This document shows positions 3,628-23,172 of a stretch of DNA of 39,849 nt, one piece after another. Below the pieces are notes generated by a model. The model worked only from the letters and a program-made list of their open reading frames with translations. It had not been told where the DNA came from and searched no databases. Made by a program: the position numbers and the translations under genes. Each line of letters begins with the position of its first letter. The stretch's first letter is position 1. The stretch is from positions 1-39,849 of the IMG/VR virus record IMGVR_UViG_3300027852_000090; one strand, 5' to 3'. This DNA is from a virus.

Positions 3628-4665
3628 ATGCCAAATCATAGAATGTTTAGCTATCGCATAGCTAATTCCGCTAAATTTTTACAGATGCCAGTAGAGGCTC
3701 AATTGTTATATTTTCACATGATATTAAGAGCTGATGACGATGGAGTAGTTGAAACATATCCTTTAATAAAATTATTAGGAACACCGAATGATAATGTTAA
3801 AATTTTAATTGTAAAAAAATTTATTAAACTATTAAATGAAGATCAAGTGATGGTTATTATGGACTGGACAGAACATAATAAAATTAGAGCAGATAGAAAA
3901 GTGAATAGCATTTATAAAAACCTTTTAGACAAAAAAAACATAAAAACATTAACACCAAAACCTCGTTCTGATGTAGTTGGTGGAGCAAGACACACTGCAA
4001 TTAAAAAAGAAACGAGTGGTTTGCCATATAGTTTTTCTTATAAAATAAGAAAAATATTTATTGGAAAAAAATGTCCTTTATGCGGAAAAATTATGGGAGA
4101 TACGAATAAAAATGATACTCCATCTATTCAACATAATATTCCATTATCAAAAGGAGGAAAACACGAATTAGGAAATATATCAATAATTTGCACTTATTGT
4201 AATATAACAAAAAAAGATATCGAAACAGATAAATTAAACGCAAAAGAAGTAGCAAATATATGGAAAAAAATGAATATGGACGGACAATGGACGGACAATG
4301 GACGGCATAAGTTAAGTAAAGATAAGTTAAGTAAAGATAAGTTAAGTAAAGATAAGTTAAGTAAAGATGAAAAAATAAATATTCTTTCTAAAGAATATTT
4401 ATTGTCAAAATTATTATTAACTCTTATTTTACAAAACACTCCAACCTTTAAAAAACCTAATTTAGAAAAATGGGCAAAAGAAATAGATTTAATGGTTCGC
4501 ATAGATAAACGAACGCACGAACAAATAGAATTTACAATTAAATGGTGTCAACAAAATGATTTTTGGAAAGCGAACATTTTATCTACTAAAAAATTAAGAA
4601 AACAATTTGACACATTGGTATCACAAATTAAACGAGATAATAAAAATAAAACAATTATATGTTAG
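3628..4665 (+). CDS. Replisome organizer / replication initiator with an embedded HNH nuclease domain
   Basis: The N-terminus MFSYRIANSAKFLQMPVEAQLLYFHMILRADDDGVVE matches the phage replisome-organizer N-domain pattern. The middle CPLCGK...IQHNIPLSKGGKHELGNISIICTYCNITK is a canonical HNH motif. The C-terminus reads WCQQNDFWKANILSTKKLRKQFDTLVSQI. Confidence 0.65.
   Translation: MPNHRMFSYRIANSAKFLQMPVEAQLLYFHMILRADDDGVVETYPLIKLLGTPNDNVKILIVKKFIKLLNEDQVMVIMDWTEHNKIRADRKVNSIYKNLLDKKNIKTLTPKPRSDVVGGARHTAIKKETSGLPYSFSYKIRKIFIGKKCPLCGKIMGDTNKNDTPSIQHNIPLSKGGKHELGNISIICTYCNITKKDIETDKLNAKEVANIWKKMNMDGQWTDNGRHKLSKDKLSKDKLSKDKLSKDEKINILSKEYLLSKLLLTLILQNTPTFKKPNLEKWAKEIDLMVRIDKRTHEQIEFTIKWCQQNDFWKANILSTKKLRKQFDTLVSQIKRDNKNKTIIC
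4276..4403 (+). repeat. Iteron-like repeat cluster plus AT-rich palindrome (candidate replication origin) inside the initiator gene
   Basis: Three elements: ATGGACGGACA x2.9 (11-bp period, 4276..4307); ATAAGTTAAGTAAAG x4 (15-bp period, 4307..4366); and a perfect 14-bp inverted repeat AATAAATATTCTTT-ct-AAAGAATATTTATT (4374..4403). Confidence 0.5.
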
Positions 4666-5138
4666 AAACAAATTATATTCTAAAATTTACAACAGGAGGA
4701 CAAATAGAAATAACAGAAAAAGAATATCAAACAATTTTTAATGCTGATGACAATGCGACTATTGGTATTAAACGAATTGGAATTATGATACAAAAAAGAA
4801 TGGTGCAAATATTCCCTAAAAAACTTCTCAATGAAATTGAAAATAGAAAAAATCAGCAAATAGGAATATTACACGATGGAACAAATGTTAAAAAACATTT
4901 TGGAGTTTGGGTTGTTAATGGAAACGAAATGCCAGATGACAAAGGTAATTGCTCTCCTGTTAAATTAGATTTAGATTATTATCCTGAAATTAAACTAGAT
5001 AGAGTCGCAACACCAAAGGAATATTTAAAAATTAAAAAGGAGAACTTAAATTATTATGAAACATTGGAAATTACAAGTGATATAATTAAAAGACTTAATA
5101 ATAAAAAATTTACTGGAATAAAAGATTTATTAAAATAA
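4659..5138 (+). CDS. Hypothetical protein (159 aa)
   Basis: ORF overlapping the upstream stop (ATGTTAG); no recognisable motif. Confidence 0.55.
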   Translation: MLETNYILKFTTGGQIEITEKEYQTIFNADDNATIGIKRIGIMIQKRMVQIFPKKLLNEIENRKNQQIGILHDGTNVKKHFGVWVVNGNEMPDDKGNCSPVKLDLDYYPEIKLDRVATPKEYLKIKKENLNYYETLEITSDIIKRLNNKKFTGIKDLLK

Positions 5139-5149
5139 ATAAAAAAATT

Positions 5150-5326
5150 ATGAAAAATAGATTAAATTTCTTATTAATATTATTAAGTTTTATAATATAT
5201 TTTGTAGTAATTAAAAATTATATTGATTCCATAGAATATAAAATAGAAACTCAAATAGCATTGAAAGAGATAGAAATATATCAATCAATATCAAATAATG
5301 CTAATTTAATAAAAAATAATAAATAA
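5150..5326 (+). CDS. Small membrane protein (58 aa)
   Basis: ATG 5150 in aaattATG context. N-terminal hydrophobic helix FLLILLSFIIYFVVI. It fills an otherwise empty 195-nt gap. Confidence 0.35.
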   Translation: MKNRLNFLLILLSFIIYFVVIKNYIDSIEYKIETQIALKEIEIYQSISNNANLIKNNK

Positions 5327-5333
5327 AAACAAT

Positions 5334-5639
5334 ATGAATAAAGAAAAATTAAAAAATTTAAAAAATACAGCAAGGTTAGTTTATACAACTGATTGTAATC
5401 AAGTTAAAATTGAATTAGGAGAAGATAAAAATTATACAATAAAATATAAAAATAAAGAAATTTTTAAATGTGTAACAAATAAAATAAGTGCTATTTATTT
5501 TGCTGAAGGATTTTCTTTATGTCTAGAAATGGAAGATGAAATGCAACAAGATATTAATTCAATTTTATCAATGCTTGAAGGAACTGTTGAAAGAATTAGA
5601 ATAATTAATTTTATAAAAAAATATTTAGTAAAAAAATAA
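5334..5639 (+). CDS. Hypothetical protein (101 aa)
   Basis: ORF with aacaatATG context; no motif recognised. Confidence 0.5.
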   Translation: MNKEKLKNLKNTARLVYTTDCNQVKIELGEDKNYTIKYKNKEIFKCVTNKISAIYFAEGFSLCLEMEDEMQQDINSILSMLEGTVERIRIINFIKKYLVKK

Positions 5640-5649
5640 ATAAAAAAAT

Positions 5650-5913
5650 ATGAAAATTACAAACAATGAAAAAATTAAAATGTTAGGTGAAATGTTATAT
5701 GATTTTAAAAAGAAAATTGTAGATATTAATTTTACAATTCGCTTTAATGAGGGAAAAAAAATTAAAAATCCTAATTTAGCACTACAAATAGATAAAATCA
5801 GAATTAAACTTGATGCAGATAAAAGACATGCAATAAGATTAGCAGAAAAATTACAAAAAGATTTAAATGAATTAAAATTAAAACCTCTTGAAGAGGATTT
5901 AAAACAAAAATAA
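5650..5913 (+). CDS. Hypothetical coiled-coil protein (87 aa)
   Basis: ORF abutting the next gene (TAAATG). Confidence 0.5.
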   Translation: MKITNNEKIKMLGEMLYDFKKKIVDINFTIRFNEGKKIKNPNLALQIDKIRIKLDADKRHAIRLAEKLQKDLNELKLKPLEEDLKQK

Positions 5914-7014
5914 ATGAAAAAATTAAAAATATTCGGTTATGCTTGGCATACTGCACATCAATATAGTTTAATGAAAGCACTCCCTGATTGTAATTTTTAT
6001 TATATCAGGAATAGATTGAGAATTTGGGCAAAAGAATCAAGACCAGAGCCTAAAAATTTATATTATGTTGATCATTACGAAGCAGGAAAATACGACTTGG
6101 CTATTTTACATTTAGATCAGCAGTGCTTATTTGACGAAAAAAAGGGAATACCATATAACATAACAAATAAACAAATAAAAGATATTCCTAAAATAGTAAT
6201 AAATCACGGAACTCCTCATTATGCGGATAAAATATCATCTGATATGGTAGATGCAATGAGAGAAAAGATAGGGGATAATTTTATGATTGTTAATAGTAAA
6301 CAAGCATGGAAAGAATGGAAAGCTGATAAATATATAATTCACGGAATAAGTGGATCAGAATTTAAGTCGTCAAAAGATAAAAAAAATAGAATAATAACAA
6401 CATTAAATCCTTCATATTATGCAAAACCAATGGATGGATGGTTTGATTATTATAATAGACAATTTTTAGCAGATGTAAAAAAGAAAATTAAAATAATTCA
6501 TATAGGTCATGATATTAAATTTAATAGTTTTGAAAAATATAGAAAATATATATCTGAAAGTTTAATTTATTTTAATTCAACAGTGCATAGTCCAATGCCT
6601 AGATCAAGAACTGAAGCAATGCTATCCGGATGTTGTGTTGTAAGCACAGGCAATCACGACTGGGATAAATATATTCAGAATGGAGTTAATGGATTTATAA
6701 TTAATGATCAAGATATTAATGCTTCTGTTAAATTATTAAAATATCTTAAAAAAAATCCTGCAAAAGCAAAAAAAATAGGAATAGCTGGAAGAAAAACAGC
6801 ATTGGAATTTTTTAAAACAGAAAAATATAGTAAAGATTGGAAAATGACAATCAACGAAGTATTAAATAATTTTATAATTGGGGAGGAAGTAAGAAAATTG
6901 AAAAAAGATTTAGAGGATTTATTATTTGTTTGCACAGGGAAAAGAGATCAACATCAATTTAATTTATTAAAAAATCTTTTACAAAATTATAGTAAAAAAA
7001 TAATAAAAGTATGA
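5914..7014 (+). CDS. Glycosyltransferase, GT-B fold (group 1/GT4-like)
   Basis: The C-terminal segment PMPRSRTEAMLSGCCVVSTGNHDWDKYIQNGVNGFII matches the GT1/GT4 pattern E-A-m-a-G-x-P-V-v...G-x-n-G-f-l. Confidence 0.65.
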   Translation: MKKLKIFGYAWHTAHQYSLMKALPDCNFYYIRNRLRIWAKESRPEPKNLYYVDHYEAGKYDLAILHLDQQCLFDEKKGIPYNITNKQIKDIPKIVINHGTPHYADKISSDMVDAMREKIGDNFMIVNSKQAWKEWKADKYIIHGISGSEFKSSKDKKNRIITTLNPSYYAKPMDGWFDYYNRQFLADVKKKIKIIHIGHDIKFNSFEKYRKYISESLIYFNSTVHSPMPRSRTEAMLSGCCVVSTGNHDWDKYIQNGVNGFIINDQDINASVKLLKYLKKNPAKAKKIGIAGRKTALEFFKTEKYSKDWKMTINEVLNNFIIGEEVRKLKKDLEDLLFVCTGKRDQHQFNLLKNLLQNYSKKIIKV

Positions 7015-8024
7015 AATATTTTTCAACATTTACTGGAGTTGGAGCATTTGAAGTCGCTGTAAAACAATTAAAATTAAATTGGAAGTCAGTTGGATATTCA
7101 GAAATAGATAAATTCGCATTGCAAGTATATCAAAAACATTTCCCAAATCATAAGAATTTTGGAGATATAACGAAAATAGATATTCCAAATTTGCCTGATT
7201 TTGATTTATTAGTTGGTGGAGCGCCTTGTCAAGATTTATCAATTGCTAAAAAAAATAGAAAAGGATTAGCTGGAAGTAGAAGTGGTTTATTTTTTAAATT
7301 TTTAGAAATATTAAAAGTAAAAAAACCTAAATATTTTTTATTAGAAAATGTCGCTTCAATGTCAAAGGAGAATAAAGATAAAATAAGTAAATTAGTTGGA
7401 GTAGAGCCTGTTATGATAAATGCCTCCCTTGTAAGTGCGCAACAAAGAAAACGATTATTTTGGTGCAATTGGAAAGTTGAACAGCCAAAAGATAAAAAAA
7501 TATATTTAAAAGATATAATAGAAAGCGGAGAAGCGGTAAAAGAAAAAGCATATTGTTTGACTACTAATCAAAAAGATTTCATTAATGATTTTATAAAAAG
7601 ACATCAAGGTAATTATGTATTTAAAAATAAGCCAATAAGAATAGCAAAAATAGGCAAAGGAGGGCAAGGAGATAGAATTTATAGTATTCACGGAAAAAGT
7701 GTTTGTCTATCAGCTAATGGTGGAGGACGAGGTGCTAAAACTGGATTATATTTAATAGTAGGAGGAGCAAAAAGAACTAGGCCTGGTAAAGGAAAACAAT
7801 TAGAAATAAGAAAAGACGGAAAATCTAATTGTTTAACAAGTGCGCAAACCGATAGCTTGGTGGTAATTAAGGATTATTTTAGAGCATTAACTCCTTTAGA
7901 ATGTGAAAGATTGCAATGCTTCCCTGATAATTGGACTGATATTTGTAGTAATACGCAAAGAAAAAAACAAATGGGAAATGCTTTTAATATAGAAGTAATA
8001 AAACATATAATTAAAAATTTATAA
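7011..8024 (+). CDS. DNA (cytosine-5)-methyltransferase
   Basis: Ordered C5-MTase motifs: FTGVGAFE (I), GGAPCQDLS (IV, PCQ), LLENV (VI), QQRKRLF (VIII), LTPLECERLQCFP (IX), GNAF (X). Its start overlaps the upstream stop (ATGA). Confidence 0.9.
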   Translation: MKYFSTFTGVGAFEVAVKQLKLNWKSVGYSEIDKFALQVYQKHFPNHKNFGDITKIDIPNLPDFDLLVGGAPCQDLSIAKKNRKGLAGSRSGLFFKFLEILKVKKPKYFLLENVASMSKENKDKISKLVGVEPVMINASLVSAQQRKRLFWCNWKVEQPKDKKIYLKDIIESGEAVKEKAYCLTTNQKDFINDFIKRHQGNYVFKNKPIRIAKIGKGGQGDRIYSIHGKSVCLSANGGGRGAKTGLYLIVGGAKRTRPGKGKQLEIRKDGKSNCLTSAQTDSLVVIKDYFRALTPLECERLQCFPDNWTDICSNTQRKKQMGNAFNIEVIKHIIKNL

Positions 8025-8173
8025 TTTAATAAATAAATATGAAAAGCAAAAATTTGTTTGATGTATATATAATAATATATATATTTATTACAAATATATC
8101 AATAATTATAATTGCATTTTTTAATATTTTAGAATTAAAATAATTAAAATAATAATTAATTAAAAATAACAAT

Positions 8174-8737
8174 ATGAAAAAAAACAAAATTATCAAATGT
8201 GTAATAATATCAATGATATTATTTAGTGCATTATTAGGAGCAGTCAACATTAATGCTTGTGGAACTAATCAGGCATTAATTAATATTTGGAATAAAAGAC
8301 AAGATTTACAAAAAGCATTCCCCGGAAATGCAGAATGTAATTCAAAATTAACAGAATGGGCTAAAAAATATGGATGGAAAGAATCGCCAACTTTAGTAGA
8401 TTATAGTCCATATGCAGAAATATTTAATTCTTTTTCATTAAGAATACAACAATTAGAAAAAAAGATTAAAACATTATCCGTTCCGACAGAACAAAAAACA
8501 ATAATTCAAAAAGATGAATTATTATTAAAGAGAGTGGAAAATTTAGAAAAAGAAATAAAAAAATTATCAACTCCTAAAATTGGAAAATGGAGAAAGTGCG
8601 TAGCTTGGACAAGCGGAAAAATTGTATGTGATGATTGCGCTCAAAATTTATCCAACGAGGGAATTGGATGGCATTATGAATTTTATATATTAAGCAAGGA
8701 CTATAAACAATTTATGCCTCGTGAATGTAGAAATTAA
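8174..8737 (+). CDS. Secreted or lipoprotein-like hypothetical protein
   Basis: N-terminal signal-like MKKNKIIKCVIISMILFSALLGAVNINAC. Internal duplicated coiled-coil segments (QQLEKKIKTLSVPTEQ and VENLEKEIKKLSTPKIG) and a Cys-rich C-terminus. Confidence 0.55.
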   Translation: MKKNKIIKCVIISMILFSALLGAVNINACGTNQALINIWNKRQDLQKAFPGNAECNSKLTEWAKKYGWKESPTLVDYSPYAEIFNSFSLRIQQLEKKIKTLSVPTEQKTIIQKDELLLKRVENLEKEIKKLSTPKIGKWRKCVAWTSGKIVCDDCAQNLSNEGIGWHYEFYILSKDYKQFMPRECRN

Positions 8738-8741
8738 TTTT

Positions 8742-9473
8742 ATGAAAATAAACTATATAATTACAACTCATAATAGAGTGAATACAATTTTAATACACAT
8801 TATGTGTGTATTGATTGACAATCCACTTAAAGATATAGAAATAATAATAGCAGATGACGGATCTACGGATGATACAGAAAAAGAGATAAAAAGATTAATG
8901 GAATTAGAAAAGTATAATATTAAATATGCAAATACAAAAAGCTATAACGAGGCAACACCATCTAAAGCACGAAATATGGGGATTGAATTAGCAACTGGCG
9001 ATTTATTAATATTTGCTGATGATGATTGTCTTCCGCATGAAAATCTTGTAAGTCATTATTTAGAATTATTAAAAAAGGGATATGTCGGAGTAGGATATAA
9101 ACGGAGCAATAAGGAAATATTAAAATTAAATTCAGATAACAGAAAAGAAATTATTGATAGTATGGAGGGAATGAGCCATACTTTATATTTTGAAAGATAT
9201 TTGAAAGGACTAATGAGTGGTGGACATTTTACAACTGGAAGTTTTGCTTTGTGGCGTGAGGATTTAGGCAATACAAGATTTGACGAGGATTTTGTGGGAT
9301 ATGGAATAGAAGATAAGCACTTTGGATATTTATTAGATCAAAAAGGATTAAAGTTTGATTATATTATACAAGCTATGAGTTATCATTGCCAAAATAATTA
9401 TAATAGATCAAGAGAACAAAAAAATAAAGAAACAATAATAAATAGAAAATTATATGAACAAAAAATTAAATAA
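8742..9473 (+). CDS. Glycosyltransferase family 2
   Basis: IIIADDGSTDDT, then ARNMGIELATGDLLIFADDDCLP (DxD), are classic GT2 signatures. I prefer ATG 8742 (MKINYIITTHNR) because track start 8721 overlaps the upstream gene. Confidence 0.8.
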   Translation: MKINYIITTHNRVNTILIHIMCVLIDNPLKDIEIIIADDGSTDDTEKEIKRLMELEKYNIKYANTKSYNEATPSKARNMGIELATGDLLIFADDDCLPHENLVSHYLELLKKGYVGVGYKRSNKEILKLNSDNRKEIIDSMEGMSHTLYFERYLKGLMSGGHFTTGSFALWREDLGNTRFDEDFVGYGIEDKHFGYLLDQKGLKFDYIIQAMSYHCQNNYNRSREQKNKETIINRKLYEQKIK

Positions 9474-10389
9474 AAAAATAATATTTATTCCATTTTATGC
9501 ACAATGTCCAGAGCATAGACAATCAGCAAGTGCGCGAATAAGAGCTGAATGGGTAGCAAAATATTTGCCTGCTGATATTATTAATGAAAAAACAAAAAGT
9601 ATAGAATTAGCAGATTATGATTTTGTTATTTTTCAAAAATGTTTTAGTAGAAAATTTATAGAGATAGCAAAAGCAATTAAGCAAAAAAATGAAAATACAA
9701 AAATAGGTTTAGATTTATGCGATCCAGTATGGAAGCAAAGAGAAAGAGAAGAGGAAGTTAAAGAGATGATTGATGTAGTTGATTTTATTACCGTGCCAAC
9801 ATTTAAATTAGAAGAAGAAATTTATAAAATTTTTAATATTCTTTCTTTTATAATCCCTGATGGTCATGATTTAGAATATTATAAAGCAGATCAAAGAAAA
9901 ATCCACGATAAAAAAATAGGAATAAAATATGTTTGGTATGGAAATAGCGGAACGATAAAAAGCCTGCAAGCAATAATGCAATATTTAGAAGATGTGAGCA
10001 TTAAAAATGATAGTTTAACAATAATAGCTGATCCGCTCGCAAGAGATATAATAAAATCAAAAAAATTAAAAATAATATTTAAAGAATGGAAAGTAGATAC
10101 TGTCAATGATATAGTCGCTGATTGTGATATTTCATTAAATCCAAAATTAAACACAAAAGAATATTTTTTTAAAAGCAACAATAAAACAGTAATGAGTTAT
10201 ATTTTATGTGTTCCTTGTATTGATAAGAATGTAAAAGATGAAAAAGAATGGAAAAATATACTTATCCACTTAAAAAATTTTACAAATAGACAAAATGATG
10301 TTAAAATTAAAAGAGATGTGTTAATAAAGAATTATAGAATAGAAACTATTGTGAGTATATGGAAAAATTTTATTAATTTATATAATTAA
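9454..10389 (+). CDS. Putative glycosyltransferase-like protein (GT-B-like), weak call
   Basis: KIIFIPFY...ASARIRAEWVAKYL N-terminus, VWYGNSGTIKSL, and FFKSNNKTVMSYILCVPCI resemble GT-B sugar-transferase C-terminal patterns. It also sits next to the GT2 gene. Confidence 0.35.
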   Translation: MNKKLNKKIIFIPFYAQCPEHRQSASARIRAEWVAKYLPADIINEKTKSIELADYDFVIFQKCFSRKFIEIAKAIKQKNENTKIGLDLCDPVWKQREREEEVKEMIDVVDFITVPTFKLEEEIYKIFNILSFIIPDGHDLEYYKADQRKIHDKKIGIKYVWYGNSGTIKSLQAIMQYLEDVSIKNDSLTIIADPLARDIIKSKKLKIIFKEWKVDTVNDIVADCDISLNPKLNTKEYFFKSNNKTVMSYILCVPCIDKNVKDEKEWKNILIHLKNFTNRQNDVKIKRDVLIKNYRIETIVSIWKNFINLYN

Positions 10390-10393
10390 AAAT

Positions 10394-11677
10394 ATGTCAG
10401 AAAAAATAAATTGGATAAATGAAAAAAGAAAAGTAGTCGATTTAATGCCAGCAGATTATAATCCACGAAAAATAAGCGAAACAAAAAAAGATGAATTGCT
10501 TAAAAGTTTGGAAAAATTAGGAATGATAATGCCGATTATAATTAATAGAGATAATAAAATTATAGGAGGACATCAAAGGATTGCTTTAATGCGCGATTTG
10601 AATATAGAAGAAGTTGATGTAAGAATTCCTGACAGGCAATTAACAGAGCAAGAAGAAAAAGAGGCAAACTTAACTACTAACATAAGCAAAGGCGAATGGG
10701 ACTGGTCAAAATTAATAGATAACTTTGATTTTGATTTAATGAGTGGTGCTGGATTTGGCGAAAAAGAAATAAGTGATCAAATGGATTTAATAAATGTGTT
10801 AGAAGACGATAAAGAAGAATTTGATATAGAAAAAGAACTTGAAAAAGCAGATGAAACATTAATTAACAAAGGCGATATTTTTAGTATAGGAAAACATAGA
10901 TTGATGTGTGGAGATAGCACGAGTATTGACGATGCGACAAAATTAATGGGGGGTGGCTTGGCAGATATGGTATTCACAGATCCTCCGTATAATTTTAATT
11001 ATAAAGGACGAGGAGATAATACTAAGGATGGAATAAAAAATGATAACATGAGTGCGGAAGATTTTAATGATTTTATAACTGGAGTATTTAAAGCAATGAT
11101 AACTACTATGCGTAATGGAGCAACTTATTATATTTGTTCTGGAATTAAAAGTTATTCTATTTTTGTTAATATTATAAATGAATTTGATTTAAAATTTTCT
11201 AATTGTATAGTTTGGATTAAAAATATAGCCTCTATGGGATGGAATGATTATAGATATAGGCACGAATTTATAGGTAAAGGAAAAAATTTTAAAAAGAAAG
11301 GAACTCCAATTTTTTATGGATATAAAGAGGGAAAACATTATTTTAGAGATACGAGAGATGAAACTGATATATGGGAAATGCCAAGAAAACAAGTTAATAA
11401 ATATGTTCATCCAACTGAAAAACCTGAATGGTTAATAATGAGAGCAATAAAGAATTCAAGTATTGTAAATCAAACAATCCTTGATTTATTCGGTGGTAGC
11501 GGAAGCACGATGATGGCCTGCGAAAAAACAAACAGAATAAATATGACAATGGAGCTAGATCCTAAATTTTGTCATGTAATTCTTGAAAGATTATCTAAAT
11601 ATTTAAAAATAGACCCAATCCGTGAAGACGGAAAAAAGTGGTCAGAAATTAAAAATGCAACAAACATTACCGATTAA
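10394..11677 (+). CDS. ParB-like nuclease domain fused to an N6-adenine/N4-cytosine DNA methyltransferase (beta class)
   Basis: N-terminal ParB-like segment (DLMPADYNPRKIS...IINRDNKIIGGHQRIALM). Then VFTDPPYN (motif IV), HPTEKPEWL, and ILDLFGGSGST (motif I). Confidence 0.85.
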   Translation: MSEKINWINEKRKVVDLMPADYNPRKISETKKDELLKSLEKLGMIMPIIINRDNKIIGGHQRIALMRDLNIEEVDVRIPDRQLTEQEEKEANLTTNISKGEWDWSKLIDNFDFDLMSGAGFGEKEISDQMDLINVLEDDKEEFDIEKELEKADETLINKGDIFSIGKHRLMCGDSTSIDDATKLMGGGLADMVFTDPPYNFNYKGRGDNTKDGIKNDNMSAEDFNDFITGVFKAMITTMRNGATYYICSGIKSYSIFVNIINEFDLKFSNCIVWIKNIASMGWNDYRYRHEFIGKGKNFKKKGTPIFYGYKEGKHYFRDTRDETDIWEMPRKQVNKYVHPTEKPEWLIMRAIKNSSIVNQTILDLFGGSGSTMMACEKTNRINMTMELDPKFCHVILERLSKYLKIDPIREDGKKWSEIKNATNITD

Positions 11678-11767
11678 ATTTATAAGAACAAATTCACAAG
11701 GCGAAAATATTGAATGGATATTTGAATTAATTGATAAGTGTGAAAATAAATTTAAATAAAAAATTAA

Positions 11768-11839
11768 TACAGGGTGGAGCAGTGGCAGCTCGATGGTTTC
11801 ATAAGCCATAGGTCGTGGGTTCGATTCCCATCCCTGTTA
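11768..11839 (+). tRNA. tRNA with CAT anticodon (Met; initiator-like features)
   Basis: Hand-folded cloverleaf. Acceptor TACAGGG/CCCTGTT with a T1:T72 mismatch; D arm GAGC-AGTGGCA-GCTC; anticodon arm ATGGT-TTCATAA-GCCAT (CAT at 11800..11802); variable AGGTC; T arm GTGGG-TTCGATT-CCCAT; discriminator A. Confidence 0.85.
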
Positions 11840-11848
11840 CATAAAAAT

Positions 11849-12238
11849 ATGAATAAAATAATTAAAGCACCACTTTTTATTATACTTCCTAGAAAAACGA
11901 AAGCAGACAGAAAGATGATAATTAATTTAAATAATTATAGAAACTGGCATTATATAATTAATAATCAAGTAAAGGATTATTATAAAGAAGCAATGCGTGA
12001 GCAATTACAGGGATTAAAGTTTAATAAAAAAATAATATTACATTTTTTATTATATAGGGGAAGTAATAGAATAACCGACAGATCAAATGTTTTGTCAATT
12101 CATGAGAAATTTTTCTGCGATGCTTTAACATTTTATAAATGTATTCCTGATGATAACGATGAATATATAGAAGAAACAAGATATCGGACAGGAGGACTTG
12201 ACCGAGAAAATCCAAGAGTAGAAATAACAATAATTTAA
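11849..12238 (+). CDS. rusA: RusA-like Holliday junction resolvase
   Basis: ITDRSNVLSIHEKFFCDALTFYKCIPDDNDEYI resembles the RusA pattern D-x-D/S-N...K...DAL...g...DD..I. Start set to ATG 11849 because the track ORF start (11774) runs through the tRNA. Confidence 0.55.
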   Translation: MNKIIKAPLFIILPRKTKADRKMIINLNNYRNWHYIINNQVKDYYKEAMREQLQGLKFNKKIILHFLLYRGSNRITDRSNVLSIHEKFFCDALTFYKCIPDDNDEYIEETRYRTGGLDRENPRVEITII

Positions 12239-12259
12239 AAATATTTAAAGAAATATTAT

Positions 12260-12490
12260 ATGAGTGACATAAAAAACGAAAAATTTATAATTAAAGTAAT
12301 TCGTAAACGAATAACAGAAATTCCAGCACATCAAGATAGTGCATCCAAAATTCCAAAAATAGAAGAAAAAGTAGACCAAATCTATGAGCAAGAATTTGAT
12401 AATTTAGATATAGGAGAACTTGCTATGAAATTAAACAGAAAAGAAAAAAAAGACGGACAAGAAAAAGATGAAAAATCAATAAAAATATAA
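12260..12490 (+). CDS. Hypothetical protein (76 aa)
   Basis: ORF in operon context only. Confidence 0.45.
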   Translation: MSDIKNEKFIIKVIRKRITEIPAHQDSASKIPKIEEKVDQIYEQEFDNLDIGELAMKLNRKEKKDGQEKDEKSIKI

Positions 12491-12491
12491 T

Positions 12492-12782
12492 ATGAAAATT
12501 ATAATATTAATAATACTAAGTTATATAATTATTAATTTTATGTTTATTAAATCAAATAAAATAGATGATCACGGTCATACTATAAAAATTAGAGAAAAAT
12601 TAAAACTAAAAACCAAAATAAAAGAATTTATTTCAAACATAACATGGAAAATATTCCTATGGTCAATTGAAATGACAGATCAGGAATATTGGCATGAATG
12701 CTATAAAGCAGAAAGAAATCAAAAATGTATAGATAATTATTCCAATGAAAAAATAAAAAAAGAAATAAATTATAAATTATGA
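12492..12782 (+). CDS. Hypothetical membrane protein (96 aa)
   Basis: N-terminal hydrophobic helix MKIIILIILSYIIINFMFI; ATGA overlap with the next ORF. Confidence 0.45.
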   Translation: MKIIILIILSYIIINFMFIKSNKIDDHGHTIKIREKLKLKTKIKEFISNITWKIFLWSIEMTDQEYWHECYKAERNQKCIDNYSNEKIKKEINYKL

Positions 12783-13081
12783 AAATATTTATTAAAAAAA
12801 TAATAGATTGGTTCTTATATGGTTTGTTAGGTAAAAATAAATTAAGTCTACATGAAAAAGAAACTATAAAAAGAATAAAAGCTAAAGAAGAAAAACCTGA
12901 AACATTTTTTACTAAATTTAAATTTAGAGAATTAAGTTGGAGAGAAATAAAAATAAGTAAAAAATGTAAACTTCCTAAAAAATATTGGATAAAAGGTAAA
13001 AGTAAATTTTTACATATTCGTTTAAGAAAAGAACATAAAAATAATATTAATCAATTAAAAATAAATAAAAACTATGTTTAA
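12779..13081 (+). CDS. Basic hypothetical protein (100 aa)
   Basis: Lys-rich ORF, coupled on both sides. Confidence 0.4.
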   Translation: MKIFIKKIIDWFLYGLLGKNKLSLHEKETIKRIKAKEEKPETFFTKFKFRELSWREIKISKKCKLPKKYWIKGKSKFLHIRLRKEHKNNINQLKINKNYV

Positions 13082-13295
13082 AATTAAAAGACACAATAAA
13101 ATACAATTTATATTCACAATTGATAAAATGATACAATACGGAAATACTGGAATAGGATGGAATAAGTTTATAATTGGTATTATAAAAATAAAGAGTATCC
13201 CTGATGATGGAGGAATGATAATGCCTGAAAATTATAAAGGATTTTTATTTAGTTTTAATTATTGGTTACCATTTTGTGATATTAGATTTAAGTAA
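13074..13295 (+). CDS. Hypothetical protein (73 aa)
   Basis: ORF only. Confidence 0.4.
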   Translation: MFKIKRHNKIQFIFTIDKMIQYGNTGIGWNKFIIGIIKIKSIPDDGGMIMPENYKGFLFSFNYWLPFCDIRFK

Positions 13296-13511
13296 AAAAT
13301 TAAGCACCATAAGAACATATAGAATGATTTGTATAGCTATATAGATTGAAATATACATCAAAGAGTGTTCATTTAGTCTTAAAAAAATGATTATAAAAAG
13401 AAGCGAAAAAATAGGAAATGTGTAAGGTTAGTGGAAATTGGAGAAATTATATTCAAATATAAAAACATTAGAAAGCATTTTGAAATTTCAAATTGTTTAA
13501 TAAATAAAAAT

Positions 13512-14015
13512 ATGCCAGCATATTCAAAAGAAAAACAAGAAGAACAAATAGCAAGAATAAGACAGATTTTAGTTTTGAAACCTAGCTCATCAGTAATGAC
13601 AGTTAAAGAATTGTTAGCAGAGCAAGGGGAAAAATTAGATCGTAGATATATAACTAAATTAAAAAAGAAAATAGAAAAAGAAAGAGCTAACAGATATAAT
13701 GCAAGAACAAAAGAAATGGTCTTATCTCAATTTGAAGATTTAGTTAATGTTATGAGCGATGTTCTTAAAAAAATAGCATTAAGCAAAACTGATTCAACTC
13801 AATTAGATAAGACGACAGCAATCAGCCAATTAATAAAACAAAATAAATTAGTTATTGAAATGATGATGGATATGGGATTGCTTGAAAGATATATAGGAAA
13901 AATGACTCATGATGTTGAAACATCTGAGATTTTAAAATTAATAGAAGATGCCAAACATAATAACAAGGATGACAAAGAAAAAGAAAACAGAGATAGTGCT
14001 AAAATCAATAAATAA
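13512..14015 (+). CDS. Putative terminase small subunit
   Basis: Lies immediately upstream of, and overlapping, the large terminase gene. ~167 aa with an HTH-like N-terminus (SVMTVKELLAEQGEKLDRRYITKLKKK) and a coiled coil. I prefer ATG 13512 (aaaaatATG context) over GTG 13431. Confidence 0.45.
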   Translation: MPAYSKEKQEEQIARIRQILVLKPSSSVMTVKELLAEQGEKLDRRYITKLKKKIEKERANRYNARTKEMVLSQFEDLVNVMSDVLKKIALSKTDSTQLDKTTAISQLIKQNKLVIEMMMDMGLLERYIGKMTHDVETSEILKLIEDAKHNNKDDKEKENRDSAKINK

Positions 14016-15465
14016 TTTTCAATATTTCTTGTTTAATATTTTTTCAAAATCATTCCCAAAATTTAAAGGTGGGAGATATATAAATGACCTTGCGGAATGG
14101 ATGCAAGGTCGTTCTTGGTTTATGAGAGTATCCGCCAGAGATCATTTCAAATCAACATCTTTGTATGCTGATTTTATGTGGCAACTATTAAATAATTTTG
14201 CACTGAATAGAGAGTATCATTATTTTAGCTATCAAGACTCTATGGCCAGTTATCATATTTCAAAGATTAAAGACTTCATGAAGAATAATCCATTTTATGA
14301 AAGTTGTATAGATTTAAAACCTACAGCTGAAAGTGTAATGAGATATTGTTGGGATTATAATATGACAGAGGATAAAAGAAAAGCACATTATACAACAATG
14401 CATGCACACGGATTAATGTCATTTAAGCGTGGTATCCATTGCCACGGAGTATATGTTGATGATCCGTTCCAAGATCCTGATAATAAATTATTATTAACAA
14501 AAGTTTATAAGATTAATGAAATAATTAAAACTCAAATATTGGATATGCCTATGGATGACGGTTTTTGTAAGATTGTAGGAACACCACAAACAAATGATGA
14601 CTTCTTTTTTAATGATGACTTATTAGAAAAATTTTCACTAAAAGTTCAACCAGCAGAGGTGGACAGTAAAAAAGAAATTGCATTGTGGCCAGAACATATG
14701 AATTGGCAAGAACTACAGGTAAGAAAAAAGATAAGAGGCAAGAAAATATTTAATCAGGAATATAATTGTATGCCGACATACAGCGAAGAAAGTTTTTTCA
14801 CAGAAGAAGATATTTTGAAAGTCACTAACGATAACTTGTTGAATAAGTCAATTAATGATATAATAAAATCACCTGAAAGAATAGAGCGTGTAGGAGGCTG
14901 GGATTTAGGAAAAAAACGACATCCAGCTCATATGGCAGCCTTTGAAGTAAGATATATAAAAGAGATTAAAAAATTTAAAGCAATTCAAATACATCAGAAA
15001 TTTATGGATGGTTGGGACTACACAGGAAAAGAGGGAAAAGACTTTGATCCTGAAAATCCAAATCAAATAGCCTACGCAAAACAAATGATAGAAAATTTTA
15101 AATTAGATTATTTATTTTGCGATAATACGAGAGGAGAATTAACTACACTTGAAGAGCAAGGAAAACTTCCAAAAGAATTAGAGTTAGTTATATTCACAAG
15201 CAAGGAGAAATATGCGATAGCTACAGAATTTGAAAAAGCAGTAACATCGGATACAGTGGAATTATTAAATAGCCAAAGAATGAGGCGACAAATAATTTGC
15301 GTAACGAATGATTTAAAAGCAATAGAAAGTCCTGAGGGTCATGGCGATTCGTTCTGGTCGATAGCATTATGCTTTAAAGGAATAAATTTGCGACAAGAAA
15401 GCCTTGATGAATATATGAATGAAGATGATTATAAAGATAGTAATATTTATCAAAAAACCTTTTAA
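13948..15465 (+). CDS. Terminase large subunit
   Basis: 505 aa. N-terminal ATPase-like region (RVSARDHFKSTS, GVYVDDPFQD). C-terminal RNaseH-like nuclease motifs (VGGWDLGKKRHPAHMAAFE, FCDNTRGE, GHGDSFWSIAL). The exact start is uncertain (13948 or 13969). Confidence 0.75.
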   Translation: MPNIITRMTKKKKTEIVLKSINNFQYFLFNIFSKSFPKFKGGRYINDLAEWMQGRSWFMRVSARDHFKSTSLYADFMWQLLNNFALNREYHYFSYQDSMASYHISKIKDFMKNNPFYESCIDLKPTAESVMRYCWDYNMTEDKRKAHYTTMHAHGLMSFKRGIHCHGVYVDDPFQDPDNKLLLTKVYKINEIIKTQILDMPMDDGFCKIVGTPQTNDDFFFNDDLLEKFSLKVQPAEVDSKKEIALWPEHMNWQELQVRKKIRGKKIFNQEYNCMPTYSEESFFTEEDILKVTNDNLLNKSINDIIKSPERIERVGGWDLGKKRHPAHMAAFEVRYIKEIKKFKAIQIHQKFMDGWDYTGKEGKDFDPENPNQIAYAKQMIENFKLDYLFCDNTRGELTTLEEQGKLPKELELVIFTSKEKYAIATEFEKAVTSDTVELLNSQRMRRQIICVTNDLKAIESPEGHGDSFWSIALCFKGINLRQESLDEYMNEDDYKDSNIYQKTF

Positions 15466-15475
15466 ATAAAATAAT

Positions 15476-18436
15476 ATGCAATTAAAAAACTTATTAAACA
15501 TTTTTAAAGAAAAACCTGTAAATAGTCCTAGGCTTGAAGATGAGATGGGAGAAAGCGGAACTACAATGTATAATGGATTTATATCAGGCGAAGAATATAA
15601 CAGTGATTTAACTGGCACTACAAAATTTACAATATACGATAAAATGCGTAAAGGCGATGCTTCAGTTGCAACGGCACTAAAAGTGGTAAAGCTTCCATTA
15701 AGATCAGCAAATTGGTATGTAGAGCCAGCGAGTGAAGAGAAAGAAGATGTTGAGATTGCTAAATTTATAGAACACAATTTAAAAAAAGAAATGAGTATCA
15801 CTTGGGATGATTTTCTACGACAAGCACTTTTAATGTTAGATTATGGTGTTTTTATTTTTGAGAAAGTATTCACTTATGTAGAATATGAGGGGAAACAATA
15901 TATTGGTTGGAAAAAATTTGCACCAAGACATCCTCGGACAGTGCTTAAATGGGCAATTAAAGAAAATAACGATGGAATAGTCCAGCAAAAAATAGGCGGA
16001 GGCGAGGCAAATATTCCTATGGAAAAATTGCTTGTTTTTGTAAATGATAAAGAGGGAGATAATTGGGAGGGAATATCATTATTGCGTACAGCATATAAGC
16101 ATTGGTTTTTTAAAGATATTTTTGAACAAATAGATGCTATGGCTTTTGAGAGGCAAGGATTAGGTGTGCCATATTGCAAAGTTCCGAAAGGAGCGAATGC
16201 AAAAGACAAAGGTAATGCAAAAACATTAGTCAAAAATTTAAGAGCTAACGAAAAAGCTCATGTAGTTTATCCTGATGGTTGGGAAGTTGGCTTTTTAGAT
16301 ATGAATTCAAAAAGCACGCGCGATCCTGAGAAAAGTATAATGCATCATCAGAGATCAATCGTTTTAAATGTTTTGGCTCAATTTTTAATGCTGGGATCAT
16401 CTGATGGAAGTGGAAGTAGAGCATTAAGCGAAGATCATAGTGCATTATTTTTTGACAGCTTACAAGCAGTAGCAAAACAGATATTGGATGTAATAAATAA
16501 ATATGCGATTAAGCAATTAGTCGATATTAACTTCCCTGAGCTAAAAAGATATCCATTATTAAAAGTTGATGATATCGGAAGTATTGATAAAAAAGCATTT
16601 AGCGATATGATGGAAACATTGGTAGGCGAAGAACTAATCAAAAGCGATGATGAATTGGAAAATTATATCAGAAAAGAATTAGATCTCCCTGATGTACAGG
16701 AAAAAGATGAAGAAGATGAAGAAATAGAAAAATTAGATTTAGAATTAGATATGCTACAAATAGATATAGCTGGAGAGGGAATGGAAACTGAAGAATTTGA
16801 AGAAGAAGACGAGGAAGAATTAAAAGAAATGACGGAAGAAATAATTATAGATGAAGAATTAATGTTTGGAGTTAAAGGTAAACCATTAAGTGAAGAAACA
16901 AAGAAAAAAATAAGTGAAGCATTAAGAAAAAAACATGGAAGTAAAATAAAAGAAGAAAGAGGCAAAGTTGGTCAAGCTGAGGGAAATATTGCAGACGCGC
17001 GTAGAAGAATTAATGAATTAAAACAAGTTTTAAGTAATTATAAAGATAAATCTAAAGCAATTAAAGATAAGAGTTTAAAAAGAGAATTTAATAAAAAAGT
17101 AAAAGATAAAATTGAGGAAATAAAAAATCTTATAAAATCAGGGCGTACAGGAATAAAAGTTGAAAGGCAAAGAATAAGAGAAAGTAAAAAACAAATAAGA
17201 GAAGAAAAATCACAATTAAGAAAAGAGAGAAAAGAAAGAAAAATAAACAGACAAATTGACAGAGATAATGAACGGATTAAAAAATTAGAAAAATCATTGA
17301 GTAAAAAGGATTCAGACAAAGCTGATAAAATAAAAGAAAGAATAGAGAAAATAAAAGATAGAATAACTGATAATAACGAAAGACTTGAAGAATTTGAAAT
17401 GAATGAGGATGAAATAAAAAAAAAAAATTTATTAAATTTTGAAGAAGATTTTAAGCCAAGAAGAAAATTGACTTATGCTGAAAAAAAAGTAAATTTTAAT
17501 AAATTAAAAAAAGAATTTGAAAAATCCGAAAGAGAATTAGAAAAAATATTGAATAAAGCATTTAATGATCAGAAAGATGAAATTTTAGCAAATTTTCAAA
17601 AAGCAGTAAAAACAAAAGATTATAAATTAATAGAAAAAATTTCATTATCCGCACCAAAGGAATATAAAAAAGAATTACTCGCTGAAATGAAAGGATTGTA
17701 TAATTTTGGAAAAAATACAGCTTCGGCAGAAATGAAAATAATAACACCATCAACTCCAATAGAAGAAGTTGACAGATTAAAAGCAAGTGCAGAAATAATA
17801 ACAAGCGATCACGAAAATAAAATAATGACTTCCAGTAAGATAGAGGCAATCAATGATATATCCAAAGGAAAAAGCACATCAGAAACAATGAAATTGGTAA
17901 AGGCGACAATGATAACAAAGGCTAATGAGCTAGCAAAACAAACAGGCTCAATTATTGCTGGAGGAATGATAAATGACGGCCGTAGATTAGCACAACAAAC
18001 AAATAAGGCAAAACTTTATGCATTACAACGCTCCGAGCTATTAGATGATAGAACCTGTAATTTTTGTGAGAGTATGGATGGTAGAGTGATTAAAGTAAGT
18101 GATCCATGGGGGCAAGAGGGCTCGTTCCATAGCCGTTGTCGTGGAGTATGGGTTGAAATAATGAATACAGAACCTGAAAAACCATCAATAAGCGGAGTGC
18201 CAAAATCAATAGCTGAAAGATATAATAAACCTAATGACTTTAAACAATTAAAAAGTCCAGTAGTAAATAAAAATAGTTTAGCGGCTGATGAGATAAAAAA
18301 GCAATATGCAAAAGATATAAAAACAAGACAATCAAAAATAGATAAATATGAAAAAGATGGAAAATATCCAAACAGAGTATCTGCACATAAAAAAGAAATT
18401 GAGAGAATGGAAAAAGTATTAAATAAATTAAAATAA
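15476..18436 (+). CDS. Portal protein (Mu gp29/DUF935-like) fused through a long K/E-rich coiled coil to a MuF/SPP1 gp7-like head morphogenesis domain
   Basis: The N-terminus FTIYDKMRKGDASVATALKVVKLPLRSANWYVEPAS resembles the Mu-type portal signature. The C-terminus LLDDRTCNFCESMDGRVIKVSDPW...FHSRCRGVWVEI is the Phage_Mu_F motif. About 300 aa of charged low complexity lies between them (about 16660..17640). Confidence 0.7.
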   Translation: MQLKNLLNIFKEKPVNSPRLEDEMGESGTTMYNGFISGEEYNSDLTGTTKFTIYDKMRKGDASVATALKVVKLPLRSANWYVEPASEEKEDVEIAKFIEHNLKKEMSITWDDFLRQALLMLDYGVFIFEKVFTYVEYEGKQYIGWKKFAPRHPRTVLKWAIKENNDGIVQQKIGGGEANIPMEKLLVFVNDKEGDNWEGISLLRTAYKHWFFKDIFEQIDAMAFERQGLGVPYCKVPKGANAKDKGNAKTLVKNLRANEKAHVVYPDGWEVGFLDMNSKSTRDPEKSIMHHQRSIVLNVLAQFLMLGSSDGSGSRALSEDHSALFFDSLQAVAKQILDVINKYAIKQLVDINFPELKRYPLLKVDDIGSIDKKAFSDMMETLVGEELIKSDDELENYIRKELDLPDVQEKDEEDEEIEKLDLELDMLQIDIAGEGMETEEFEEEDEEELKEMTEEIIIDEELMFGVKGKPLSEETKKKISEALRKKHGSKIKEERGKVGQAEGNIADARRRINELKQVLSNYKDKSKAIKDKSLKREFNKKVKDKIEEIKNLIKSGRTGIKVERQRIRESKKQIREEKSQLRKERKERKINRQIDRDNERIKKLEKSLSKKDSDKADKIKERIEKIKDRITDNNERLEEFEMNEDEIKKKNLLNFEEDFKPRRKLTYAEKKVNFNKLKKEFEKSERELEKILNKAFNDQKDEILANFQKAVKTKDYKLIEKISLSAPKEYKKELLAEMKGLYNFGKNTASAEMKIITPSTPIEEVDRLKASAEIITSDHENKIMTSSKIEAINDISKGKSTSETMKLVKATMITKANELAKQTGSIIAGGMINDGRRLAQQTNKAKLYALQRSELLDDRTCNFCESMDGRVIKVSDPWGQEGSFHSRCRGVWVEIMNTEPEKPSISGVPKSIAERYNKPNDFKQLKSPVVNKNSLAADEIKKQYAKDIKTRQSKIDKYEKDGKYPNRVSAHKKEIERMEKVLNKLK

Positions 18437-22956: not shown

Positions 22957-23172
22957 ATGGCAGATGAAAAAAATCCAATAGAGTTAGTTGCAGAGGCTAC
23001 GGCCGTGAAAGCGCAATTATTGAATTCAAAAGCCGAATATGAAGTGATTGCCGAAAGTGGATTATTCAAGAATGGAGAAACCTACGAAAAAGGTAAAATC
23101 ATAACGCTTGATAAATTCACAGGAGGAAATTACGAGAGGGCAAAAGCCTTAAAATTTATTAAAGATAAATAA
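22957..23172 (+). CDS. Hypothetical protein (71 aa)
   Basis: ORF only. Confidence 0.5.
   Translation: MADEKNPIELVAEATAVKAQLLNSKAEYEVIAESGLFKNGETYEKGKIITLDKFTGGNYERAKALKFIKDK

Follow-up and report, generated by a model that had tools for sequence, protein, structure and literature searches.

Which molecule do the glycosyltransferases (GTs) of a small, apparently non-temperate tailed phage modify? The question is raised by IMG/VR virus record IMGVR_UViG_3300027852_000090, a stretch of 39,849 nucleotides that was analysed at its full length and that we refer to as the window, in which a first-pass annotation had described a single island of GT and DNA methyltransferase genes between positions 5914 and 11677. 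We found all six open reading frames (ORFs) of that island present on the + strand (Table 1), and their identities were upheld by Pfam and PHROG searches or, for the gene at 9454-10389, by an AlphaFold2 (AF2) model compared with known folds in Foldseek, and for the signal-peptide protein by its N-terminal hydrophobic segment. The gene identities and the view of the GTs as a real, selected feature thus stood, but the unity of the island did not: it is a composite, built around a pair of GT-B genes that is conserved across many uncultured phages and into which other genes have been inserted in this lineage. As to the acceptor, we tentatively favor glycosylation of protein in the cytoplasm, most probably of virion proteins.

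A conserved pair of GT-B genes

The first member of the pair, the GT4-like protein encoded at 5914-7014, scored 37 bits against the Pfam model Glycos_transf_1 (cut-off 26.4), and its C-terminal half matched Glycos_transf_1, Glyco_trans_1_4 and Glyco_trans_1_2. Its AF2 model has a pLDDT (predicted local distance difference test) score of 91, and the best Foldseek matches are the retaining GT4 enzymes BshA, MshA, PglA and GlgM, with many of the matches in BFVD being giant-virus GT1 proteins; a search of the PDB by sequence gave marginal matches only. The second Glu of the E-x7-E motif is invariant (E234, in the segment RTEAM), and the residue eight positions upstream is not Glu.

The second member, the 311-aa protein encoded at 9454-10389, is cryptic by sequence, with no match in Pfam, PHROG or NCBIfam, and its family has none in a PDB sequence search. 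Despite this lack of a family model, its AF2 model, made from an alignment with 32 homologues, reached a pLDDT of 94, and Foldseek matched it to BshA, MshA, PimA, PglA, SdgB, SenB and, at rank 15, the T4 alpha-glucosyltransferase (E down to 5e-9, TM-score about 0.7). For both members of the pair, the Foldseek probability of a match to BshA, MshA, PimA and PglA is 1.0 (TM-score 0.6-0.72). Judged by this predicted structure, 9454-10389 encodes a GT-B glycosyltransferase, as the first-pass annotation had proposed. The invariant positions of its family are D87, D90, D136 and the motif K240-S-N-N-K-T245.

Both families are large. A profile of the 311-aa family retrieved 5373 cluster representatives at E<=1e-3, and the GT4-like family comprises 1366 homologues, many of them on contigs of 35-47 kb, and in IMG/VR at least 167 contigs carry the gene. 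These IMG/VR loci were found with an alignment as the query; the single GT4-like sequence gave nothing. A tblastn search of 50,697 GenBank phage records, sequenced mycobacteriophages included, gave no match to either member of the pair. The pair is uncharacterised and recurs in hundreds of uncultured phages, with no counterpart among the sequenced cultured ones.

The two genes keep their order in nearly all relatives. By tblastn, 73 of the 78 IMG/VR loci with room for a partner gene have a 311-aa homologue downstream of their GT4-like gene, and in 52 the gap was 400 nt or less; the same pairing was seen in about 25 loci from metagenomes and metagenome-assembled genomes (MAGs). A search for a fusion of the GT4-like and 311-aa proteins found none, and the long proteins of the 311-aa family are instead fusions with a GT2 domain or carry unknown domains. 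We regard the pair as an ancient, conserved module.

The other two transferases

The GT2 enzyme (8742-9473) is unambiguous in sequence, with 81.8 bits against a Pfam cut-off of 23.3 and intact DDGS and FADDDC motifs, and it also matched EpsD, PglI and TuaG-type models in NCBIfam, all below cut-off. Its gene, for which an alternative GTG start lies at 8721, overlaps the 311-aa gene by 20 nt. In L004, L005 and L008, too, the gene just before the 311-like one encodes a GT2 (labels of this kind denote homologous loci gathered from metagenomes, MAGs and genome collections), and a GT2-311 fusion protein of 839 aa is known (P0312). The GT2 is thus translationally linked to the second member of the pair.

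A fourth, GT32-like transferase, which the first-pass annotation had placed at 37369-38013, was confirmed by its match to Gly_transf_sug. With this result, the profile and structure searches that had been suggested as a check gave a GT-like assignment for all four genes. The best PDB matches of the GT32-like family profile are SetA (2.7e-14), YeGT, PaTox, Och1 (3e-11) and TcdA/B. The canonical DXD motif is not found in this protein: in the segment GGFVAPADSE the first Asp is replaced by Pro, as it is in most close relatives, and only the second Asp (D86) is invariant, although the shifted D-S-E could serve as a substitute. The GT32-like gene is accompanied by a nitroreductase-family gene, and the same duo occurs in L131 (10001-11357), an unrelated 42.7-kb phage, without the GT pair within 10 kb, which indicates that the GT32-like gene is a separable module. 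In the circular genome (see below), the distance from it to the island downstream, counted across the ends of the window, is only about 8.3 kb.

Table 1. Features of the GT region and of the GT32-like locus, in window coordinates
Feature	Position	Strand	Evidence and remarks
87-aa coiled-coil-like protein	5650..5913	+	directly upstream of GT4-like gene; kept in subclade
GT4-like GT-B glycosyltransferase, 366 aa, soluble	5914..7014	+	Pfam, AF2/Foldseek; first pair member
Orphan C5-cytosine DNA methyltransferase	7011..8024	+	Pfam DNA_methylase E 2.7e-52, profile 1-321/324; TIGR00675 dcm E 1.6e-54
187-aa protein: N-terminal signal/anchor, central coiled coil, Cys-rich C-terminus	8174..8737	+	hydrophobic window aa 4-30 only
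GT2 (GT-A) glycosyltransferase, 243 aa, soluble	8742..9473	+	Pfam Glycos_transf_2 E 6.9e-23
Cryptic GT-B glycosyltransferase (predicted), 311 aa	9454..10389	+	AF2, Foldseek; second pair member
ParB_N / N6-or-N4 DNA methyltransferase fusion	10394..11677	+	N6_N4_Mtase E 7e-29 (profile 2-219/221), ParB_N in front; phrog_498 E 1e-109
tRNA-Met (CAU)	11768..11840	+	ARAGORN; blastn matches to phage tRNA-Met genes; downstream edge of island, between ParB-methylase and RusA
GT32-like / toxin-like GT-A glycosyltransferase, 214 aa	37369..38013	+	Gly_transf_sug E 2.5e-8, 34.9 bits vs cut-off 23
Nitroreductase-family protein, 187 aa	38458..39021	+	Pfam Nitroreductase E 4.5e-10

The space between the pair is a variable cargo site

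The first-pass annotation had suggested a survey of related genomes for conservation of the island. The survey showed that the GT pair is conserved, and that the C5 methylase and the secreted protein are not. A split of the pair, by 2.4-3.8 kb, is seen only in the subclade to which the window belongs (L001, L004, L005 and L008). In the closest relatives, this slot holds a GT2, a small-molecule S-adenosylmethionine (SAM) methyltransferase and a second GT2; in the window, a single GT2 is accompanied there by the C5 DNA methylase and the 187-aa protein with the signal peptide. The slot is a variable cargo site in this subclade. The small coiled-coil-like gene at 5650-5913 is conserved: its homologues (tblastn identity 47% in L004, 43% in L022 and 39% in L005) each stand directly upstream of the GT4-like gene.

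To describe the usual surroundings of the pair, we tabulated the families of 150 ORFs that flank it in 25 dereplicated phage loci, listing the 25 commonest of the 56 families matched. GT2 was the most frequent (22), followed by GT1 (18, mostly as a GT1-GT2 fusion of about 530 aa), Methyltransf_11 (9), portal (8), ParB (4), N6/N4 methylase (3), UDP-glucose dehydrogenase (3), C5 methylase (2) and GDP-mannose dehydratase (2). The families Tet_JBP and thymidylate synthase were not among the 25 commonest. These neighbors imply that the pair, which usually stands shortly before the packaging genes, typically belongs to a cassette of several GTs and sugar-tailoring genes at that place. The first-pass annotation had considered three to four GTs unusual for a genome of this size, a view that the survey does not bear out: the relatives carry as many GTs or more, together with sugar methyltransferases, epimerases and dehydrogenases. 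The window phage has no nucleotide-sugar enzymes of its own, and it has a reduced cassette that carries DNA-methylase and membrane-protein cargo. Beside the GTs of more distant phages with the pair, there are also genes for a radical-SAM/SPASM enzyme, a SAM synthetase and a PIG-L deacetylase (L009 8527-9264, L010 12766-13743 and L008 19399-19977); tailoring chemistry in these phages is more elaborate than in the window.

The secreted protein and the two methylases appear to be independent of the GTs

The protein encoded at 8174-8737 is the only product of the island with a hydrophobic segment, an N-terminal one with a lipobox-like INAC, and it has no family match in Pfam, PHROG or NCBIfam. The first-pass annotation had raised the idea that it acts with the GTs on the envelope. 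However, the single homologue that we detected near the pair (L049, 35% identity) does not adjoin the GTs but stands beside lysis-like genes, namely a DPBB_1 gene and a homologue of the window ORF at 34995-35942. We consider 8174-8737 to be, in all likelihood, lineage-specific cargo outside the glycosylation core.

The C5 methylase gene begins within the stop codon of the GT4-like gene (ATGA), an overlap that reflects gene packing. Its homologue was found near the pair in 4 of the 78 IMG/VR loci, and the closest relatives, L004 and L005, do not have it between the two GT genes; L005 encodes it elsewhere in its genome. The fusion of ParB and N6/N4 methylase domains is of a very common phage type and follows the pair in 24 of the 78 loci. 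No restriction endonuclease family that could be cognate to either enzyme was found by Pfam or PHROG in the adjacent ORFs.

Restriction-site counts show strong avoidance. The palindrome ACGT is wholly absent from the window (0 observed vs 27 expected), and GTAC (12 vs 41), TCGA (18 vs 51) and CCGG (8 vs 20) are depleted, whereas GATC, GCGC and AGCT show no depletion. Avoidance combined with site-specific methylation fits classical anti-restriction, and the two methylases look like ordinary anti-restriction enzymes that are independent of the GTs. Moreover, the complete avoidance of ACGT implies that cytosines are probably not protected in bulk.

Which acceptor do the GTs use?

All four GTs lack a transmembrane segment, and Pfam and PHROG scans of the genome found no flippase, exporter (Wzm/Wzt), polymerase (Wzy), ligase or initiating phosphoglycosyltransferase. 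Soluble GTs without export and ligation machinery imply an acceptor that can be reached in the cytoplasm, that is, a protein, a host lipid-linked intermediate, or DNA. We favor protein, most probably virion proteins, as the best single account, although we hold it to be somewhat less likely than not; virion-protein glycosylation is the leading reading, and we infer it from sequence and genomic context. In this pathway, the soluble GTs would draw on host nucleotide sugars in the cytoplasm and build, stepwise, a short hetero-oligosaccharide of at least three sugars on a protein, most probably on at least one virion protein before or during assembly, so that the particle would be coated with glycan like those of mycobacteriophages and giant viruses. 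In this pathway or in one of its own, the toxin-like GT32-like enzyme may transfer sugar to protein.

Several observations hint at a protein acceptor. The closest solved relatives of the GT32-like enzyme, SetA, YeGT, PaTox and TcdA/B, are toxins that glycosylate proteins, and in L006 a GT2-methyltransferase-GT2 group directly follows the capsid gene. A precedent exists in mycobacteriophages, whose own GTs add sugars to the proteins of the capsid and tail tube (Freeman 2023, as recounted in PMC12363180 and PMC12619734). In addition, Bacteroidota keep the pair in four loci at 33-39% identity (L021, L023, L025 and L032), of which L021 is a 300-kb Bacteroidales contig and L032 a 263-kb Niastella contig. 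There, a C39-peptidase ABC exporter stands beside the pair in L021, L025 and L032, LanC-like similarity is present in the same three loci, HlyD-like genes are found in L021 and L023 (with a shorter HlyD-like similarity in L032), and two loci also have a GT32-like gene, which immediately precedes the pair in L021 and is about 6 kb away from it in L025. These surroundings look like a context of peptide or protein export, and the clusters may be glycosylated bacteriocin clusters or clusters for ribosomally synthesized and post-translationally modified peptides (RiPPs). The Bacteroidota clusters (L021 1367-11879, L025 5751-17515, L032 9980-18848, and L023) also hold an epimerase, and L032 adds a TOD1/MUCI70-like GT.

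A number of points weigh against a virion target. The glycosylated mycobacteriophage proteins have a C-terminal tail rich in Ser and Thr, which the major capsid protein of the window lacks. The GT genes lie in a nin-like region upstream of the terminase, outside the structural operon; in a scan of positions 4500-14500, no promoter or terminator signal divided them from either side. Phages that differ in portal and capsid type have the pair in common, so that a specific structural acceptor is not obvious. Fold matches to BshA, MshA, PglA and PimA, in PDB and BFVD alike, do not separate acceptor classes. In Bacteroidota, the association appears as gene neighborhood only, and a search of those loci for precursor peptides found nothing convincing.

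The first-pass annotation had named the 1049-aa protein (23762-26911) as a conceivable acceptor; its content of Ser plus Thr is only 18%, which gives no evidence either way. This protein, encoded after the head genes, has seven tandem 51-aa repeats with IKTFSI anchors (aa 226-531), which are beta-propeller-like, an FN3-like segment rich in Ser, Thr and Gly (aa 540-645), and short NLSDN-type repeats at its C-terminus. It is highly variable among close relatives, with 35-47% identity over about 410-420 aa compared to 75-90% for the capsid protein. Other candidate acceptors are the major capsid protein (21927-22895), a 71-aa protein (22957-23172), a decoration-like protein of 156 aa (23180-23650) and the tail tube (28788-30017).

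We considered that the GTs might instead remodel host envelope glycans, acting at the cytoplasmic face on undecaprenyl-phosphate-linked intermediates of the O-antigen, capsule or teichoic-acid type, with the host exporting the product. The surface of the infected cell would thereby be altered, for example so that superinfection is blocked or progeny do not adsorb to debris. Such genes in phages are usually read as surface-glycan auxiliary genes in the metagenomic literature (PMC12911398), and the likeness of the GT2 to enzymes of lipid-linked glycans noted above, as well as the sugar methyltransferases and nucleotide-sugar enzymes that stand beside the pair in relatives, as they do in O-antigen clusters, are compatible with this idea. 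A further argument comes from remote cellular homologues of the GT4-like protein (25-30% identity), which lack a 311-like partner. One of them is the last domain (29% identity) of a 1603-aa protein of Pseudoxanthomonas sacheonensis, in which it follows Methyltransf_24, GT1 and GT2 domains, and which is encoded directly after Wzm/Wzt; we read this protein as a classic O-antigen synthase of the ABC-transporter-dependent kind. Phages commonly show the same succession as its domains, with a GT1-GT2 fusion and then the GT4-like gene, and the proximity to Wzm/Wzt points to a lipid-linked acceptor and so counts against a protein one. On the other hand, none of the initiating, flipping, exporting (ABC type), polymerizing or ligating enzymes of such pathways was found by the scans of this phage, its GT2 lacks the membrane anchors of GtrB, and in relatives the gene for the secreted protein shows no link to the GTs. 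Furthermore, the homologues that do keep the pair (33-39% identity) adjoin exporters of peptides and not of polysaccharides. Long-term seroconversion is unlikely given the lack of an integrase. We regard envelope remodeling as the main rival, somewhat less likely than a virion-protein target.

Sugar hypermodification of DNA appears far less probable. Here, the C5 methylase would make 5-methylcytosine, a hidden oxidase would convert it to 5-hydroxymethylcytosine (5hmC), and the GTs would add sugars as protection from restriction. The coupling of the C5 methylase to the GT4-like gene by the ATGA overlap and the T4 alpha-glucosyltransferase among the fold matches of the 311-aa protein could be taken in its favor. 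Known DNA GTs were recruited from GT-A and GT-B enzymes of the lipopolysaccharide (LPS) and teichoic-acid type, and often lie near ParB, methylase, epimerase and terminase genes (bioRxiv 10.1101/2023.12.21.572611). However, a hydroxyl acceptor on the base is needed, supplied either by a thymidylate-synthase homologue, for 5hmC and 5-hydroxymethyluracil or for 5-hydroxycytosine (5hoC) (PMC13326640), or by a TET/JBP-type 5-methylpyrimidine oxygenase (5mYOX) acting after a C5 methylase (PMC8256090; bioRxiv 10.1101/2023.12.21.572611). We found no thymidylate-synthase-like hydroxymethylase, hydroxylase or TET/JBP enzyme in any ORF by Pfam or PHROG, and an HxD...H triad in none of the unannotated ORFs. 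The first-pass annotation, which had seen no base-hydroxymethylating enzyme, was therefore correct, and the DNA option is weakened much further than it had suggested. The relatives agree: the C5 methylase is missing near the pair in 74 of the 78 IMG/VR loci and in the closest relatives, and the neighbor survey (above) did not place Tet_JBP or thymidylate synthase among its commonest families. Avoidance of ACGT and of the other depleted palindromes suggests DNA that is exposed to restriction at cytosine-containing sites. Pyle et al. consider the 65% of GT contigs that have neither 5mYOX nor ThyS less likely to encode DNA pathways (bioRxiv 10.1101/2023.12.21.572611). Since some phage 5mYOX enzymes are missed by the Pfam TET/JBP model (PMC13229309), we keep the DNA option as very improbable instead of dropping it.

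A protein or peptide outside the virion might also be the target. The GT32-like enzyme could, with the nitroreductase, modify a host protein in the manner of a toxin, or the GTs could glycosylate a small phage peptide, as in the Bacteroidota clusters with LanC-like genes and C39 exporters. The toxins among the best solved relatives of the GT32-like enzyme suit the former version, as do its location amid small, early-type ORFs and the retention of the duo in an unrelated phage; for the latter speak the C39-peptidase exporters and LanC-like genes near the pair in Bacteroidota and the radical-SAM/SPASM gene beside the GTs in L009. Yet the activity of the GT32-like enzyme is uncertain with the first Asp of its DXD replaced (PADSE), and Och1, whose acceptor is a glycan, scores nearly as well as the toxins. 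Neither a candidate precursor peptide nor an exporter was found in the phage, and the Bacteroidota loci yielded no precursor. We judge targets outside the virion to be improbable. Returning to cytoplasmic protein glycosylation with virion proteins as the likeliest target, a broader version is conceivable, if doubtful: the pair may be an uncharacterised protein- or peptide-glycosylation system shared by hundreds of uncultured 35-47 kb tailed phages and by the Bacteroidota clusters with LanC-like and C39-exporter genes, with glycosylation of virions or phage peptides being common and lineage-defining in environmental siphoviruses, yet absent from collections of cultured phages.

Genome setting

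The window is a siphovirus-like genome of 28% G+C with essentially all genes on the + strand, comprising modules for recombination and replication, the GT region, RusA, terminase, a portal-MuF fusion, protease, scaffold, an HK97-type capsid protein, a tape-measure protein and tail genes. An exact 127-bp direct repeat occupies both ends (1-127 and 39723-39849), which implies a circular assembly (of a circular or terminally redundant genome) with a true length of 39,722 bp, and the same genome, differently permuted, is found as an ENA contig of 39,833 bp. A 294-aa gene (39342 to 504), at the position of ERF in relatives, crosses the junction, and the ORF at 25-504 is its C-terminal part only. 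Both the G+C content of the GT region (0.24-0.30) and its G+C at third codon positions are like those of the remaining genome, and so the region is not a recent foreign insert.

Consistent with the first-pass annotation, PHROG and Pfam searches of all ORFs revealed no integrase. The window does encode a small helix-turn-helix protein, whose homologues in L005 and L049 are annotated LexA_DNA_bind, in addition to an exonuclease and the gene at the ERF position. A non-temperate lifestyle is plausible.

In the scan of positions 4500-14500, promoter-like sites were at chance level (79 vs 78.7), and no + strand terminator was seen within the island. At the downstream edge, the mechanically called ORF 11774-12238 overlaps the tRNA-Met gene, and the actual gene for the RusA-like resolvase begins near 11849. 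Two further genes have unusual architectures. The product of 3628-4665 is a DnaD-like helicase loader or replication initiator, with an HNH endonuclease domain inserted mid-protein (aa ~130-250) that separates its N- and C-terminal DnaD/O-like parts. The gene at 15476-18436 encodes a 986-aa fusion of a portal (aa 35-444) and a minor-head/MuF-like domain (aa 856-976).

Nucleotide searches of GenBank phages gave short similarities to methylase and tRNA genes only. Of the relatives from genome collections, the two closest were binned with MAGs of Parcubacteria and Patescibacteria, and several further ones with Saccharibacteria, Peribacteria and Magasanikbacteria, which hints at a host in the candidate phyla radiation (CPR) or at a binning artefact, the binning of phage-size contigs being weak evidence. 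Phage-size contigs with the pair recur in Patescibacteria (CPR) MAGs: L016/L005 (JBAZUU010000008.1), L022, L018, L020, L026 and L027. One CPR-binned contig of 39,865 bp is collinear with the window over the region compared, which runs from the recombination genes up to where the portal gene begins. The cellular homologues of the GT pair are mostly from Bacteroidota.

Comparison with known glycosylation systems

Phage glycosylation is known from three settings: DNA hypermodification, temperate seroconversion and, recently, virion glycosylation in mycobacteriophages. The last of these (Che8, Corndog and Myrna) resembles the window in its design, with soluble GTs encoded by a phage with a siphovirus-size genome and a proposed cytoplasmic decoration of capsid or tail with host nucleotide sugars. 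However, the pair gave no tblastn match to the group of Che8 gp110 and Corndog gp38. Only the GT32-like protein finds relatives there, and these are other mycobacteriophage GTs, the annotated glycosyltransferases of Phrappuccino and Settecandela (28% identity). The capsid protein differs in its lack of the Ser/Thr-rich C-terminal tail.

With DNA hypermodification, which includes the T4 alpha- and beta-GTs, the methyltransferase/5mYOX/GT pathways (Burke 2021; Pyle 2023/2024) and 5hoC arabinosylation with a ThyA homologue (Lee 2026), the window shares GT-A and GT-B enzymes of LPS or teichoic-acid ancestry that lie by a C5 methylase, a ParB-domain protein and the terminase region. It differs in having no enzyme that forms a hydroxylated base, in a methylase that is not conserved with the GTs, and in its strong avoidance of ACGT. 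The Gtr cassettes of P22 and SfV share with the window GT2 the N-terminal nucleotide-binding half of GtrB (31% over 124 aa; phrog_841 E 1.4e-9), but the window has neither the GtrA flippase, the GtrC membrane transferase, the GT2 anchor nor the integrase, and its cassette lies upstream of the terminase, not by an attachment site.

Outside these settings, the ABC-dependent O-antigen synthases of the WbdA/WbbB type have the same order of GT1, GT2 and GT4-like domains with methyltransferases and are likewise soluble, cytoplasmic and stepwise in their action. They differ in that identity is only 25-30%, the cellular homologues lack a 311-like partner, and the phage has no exporter, initiating enzyme or Wzt-type terminator. 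Mimivirus and the Megavirinae have clade-specific glycosylation clusters for the glycans of their fibrils. The relatives of the window recall these clusters in their variable sets of GTs, sugar methyltransferases, epimerases or dehydratases and UDP-glucose dehydrogenase; they are small tailed phages, unlike the giant viruses, and the window phage itself has no nucleotide-sugar enzymes.

Two cautions for annotation follow from these comparisons. A methylase beside a GT does not automatically mark a DNA-hypermodification cluster, and GTs of this kind are not automatically auxiliary genes for the host surface. Should the sugars go onto a virion protein, particles with a glycan coat would be common in environmental phages, with effects on adsorption, stability and grazing; if the acceptor is a host surface glycan, envelope remodeling would be widespread in apparently non-temperate phages. 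By its defining features, the cassette of the window fits none of the three known settings, yet its core is very widespread.

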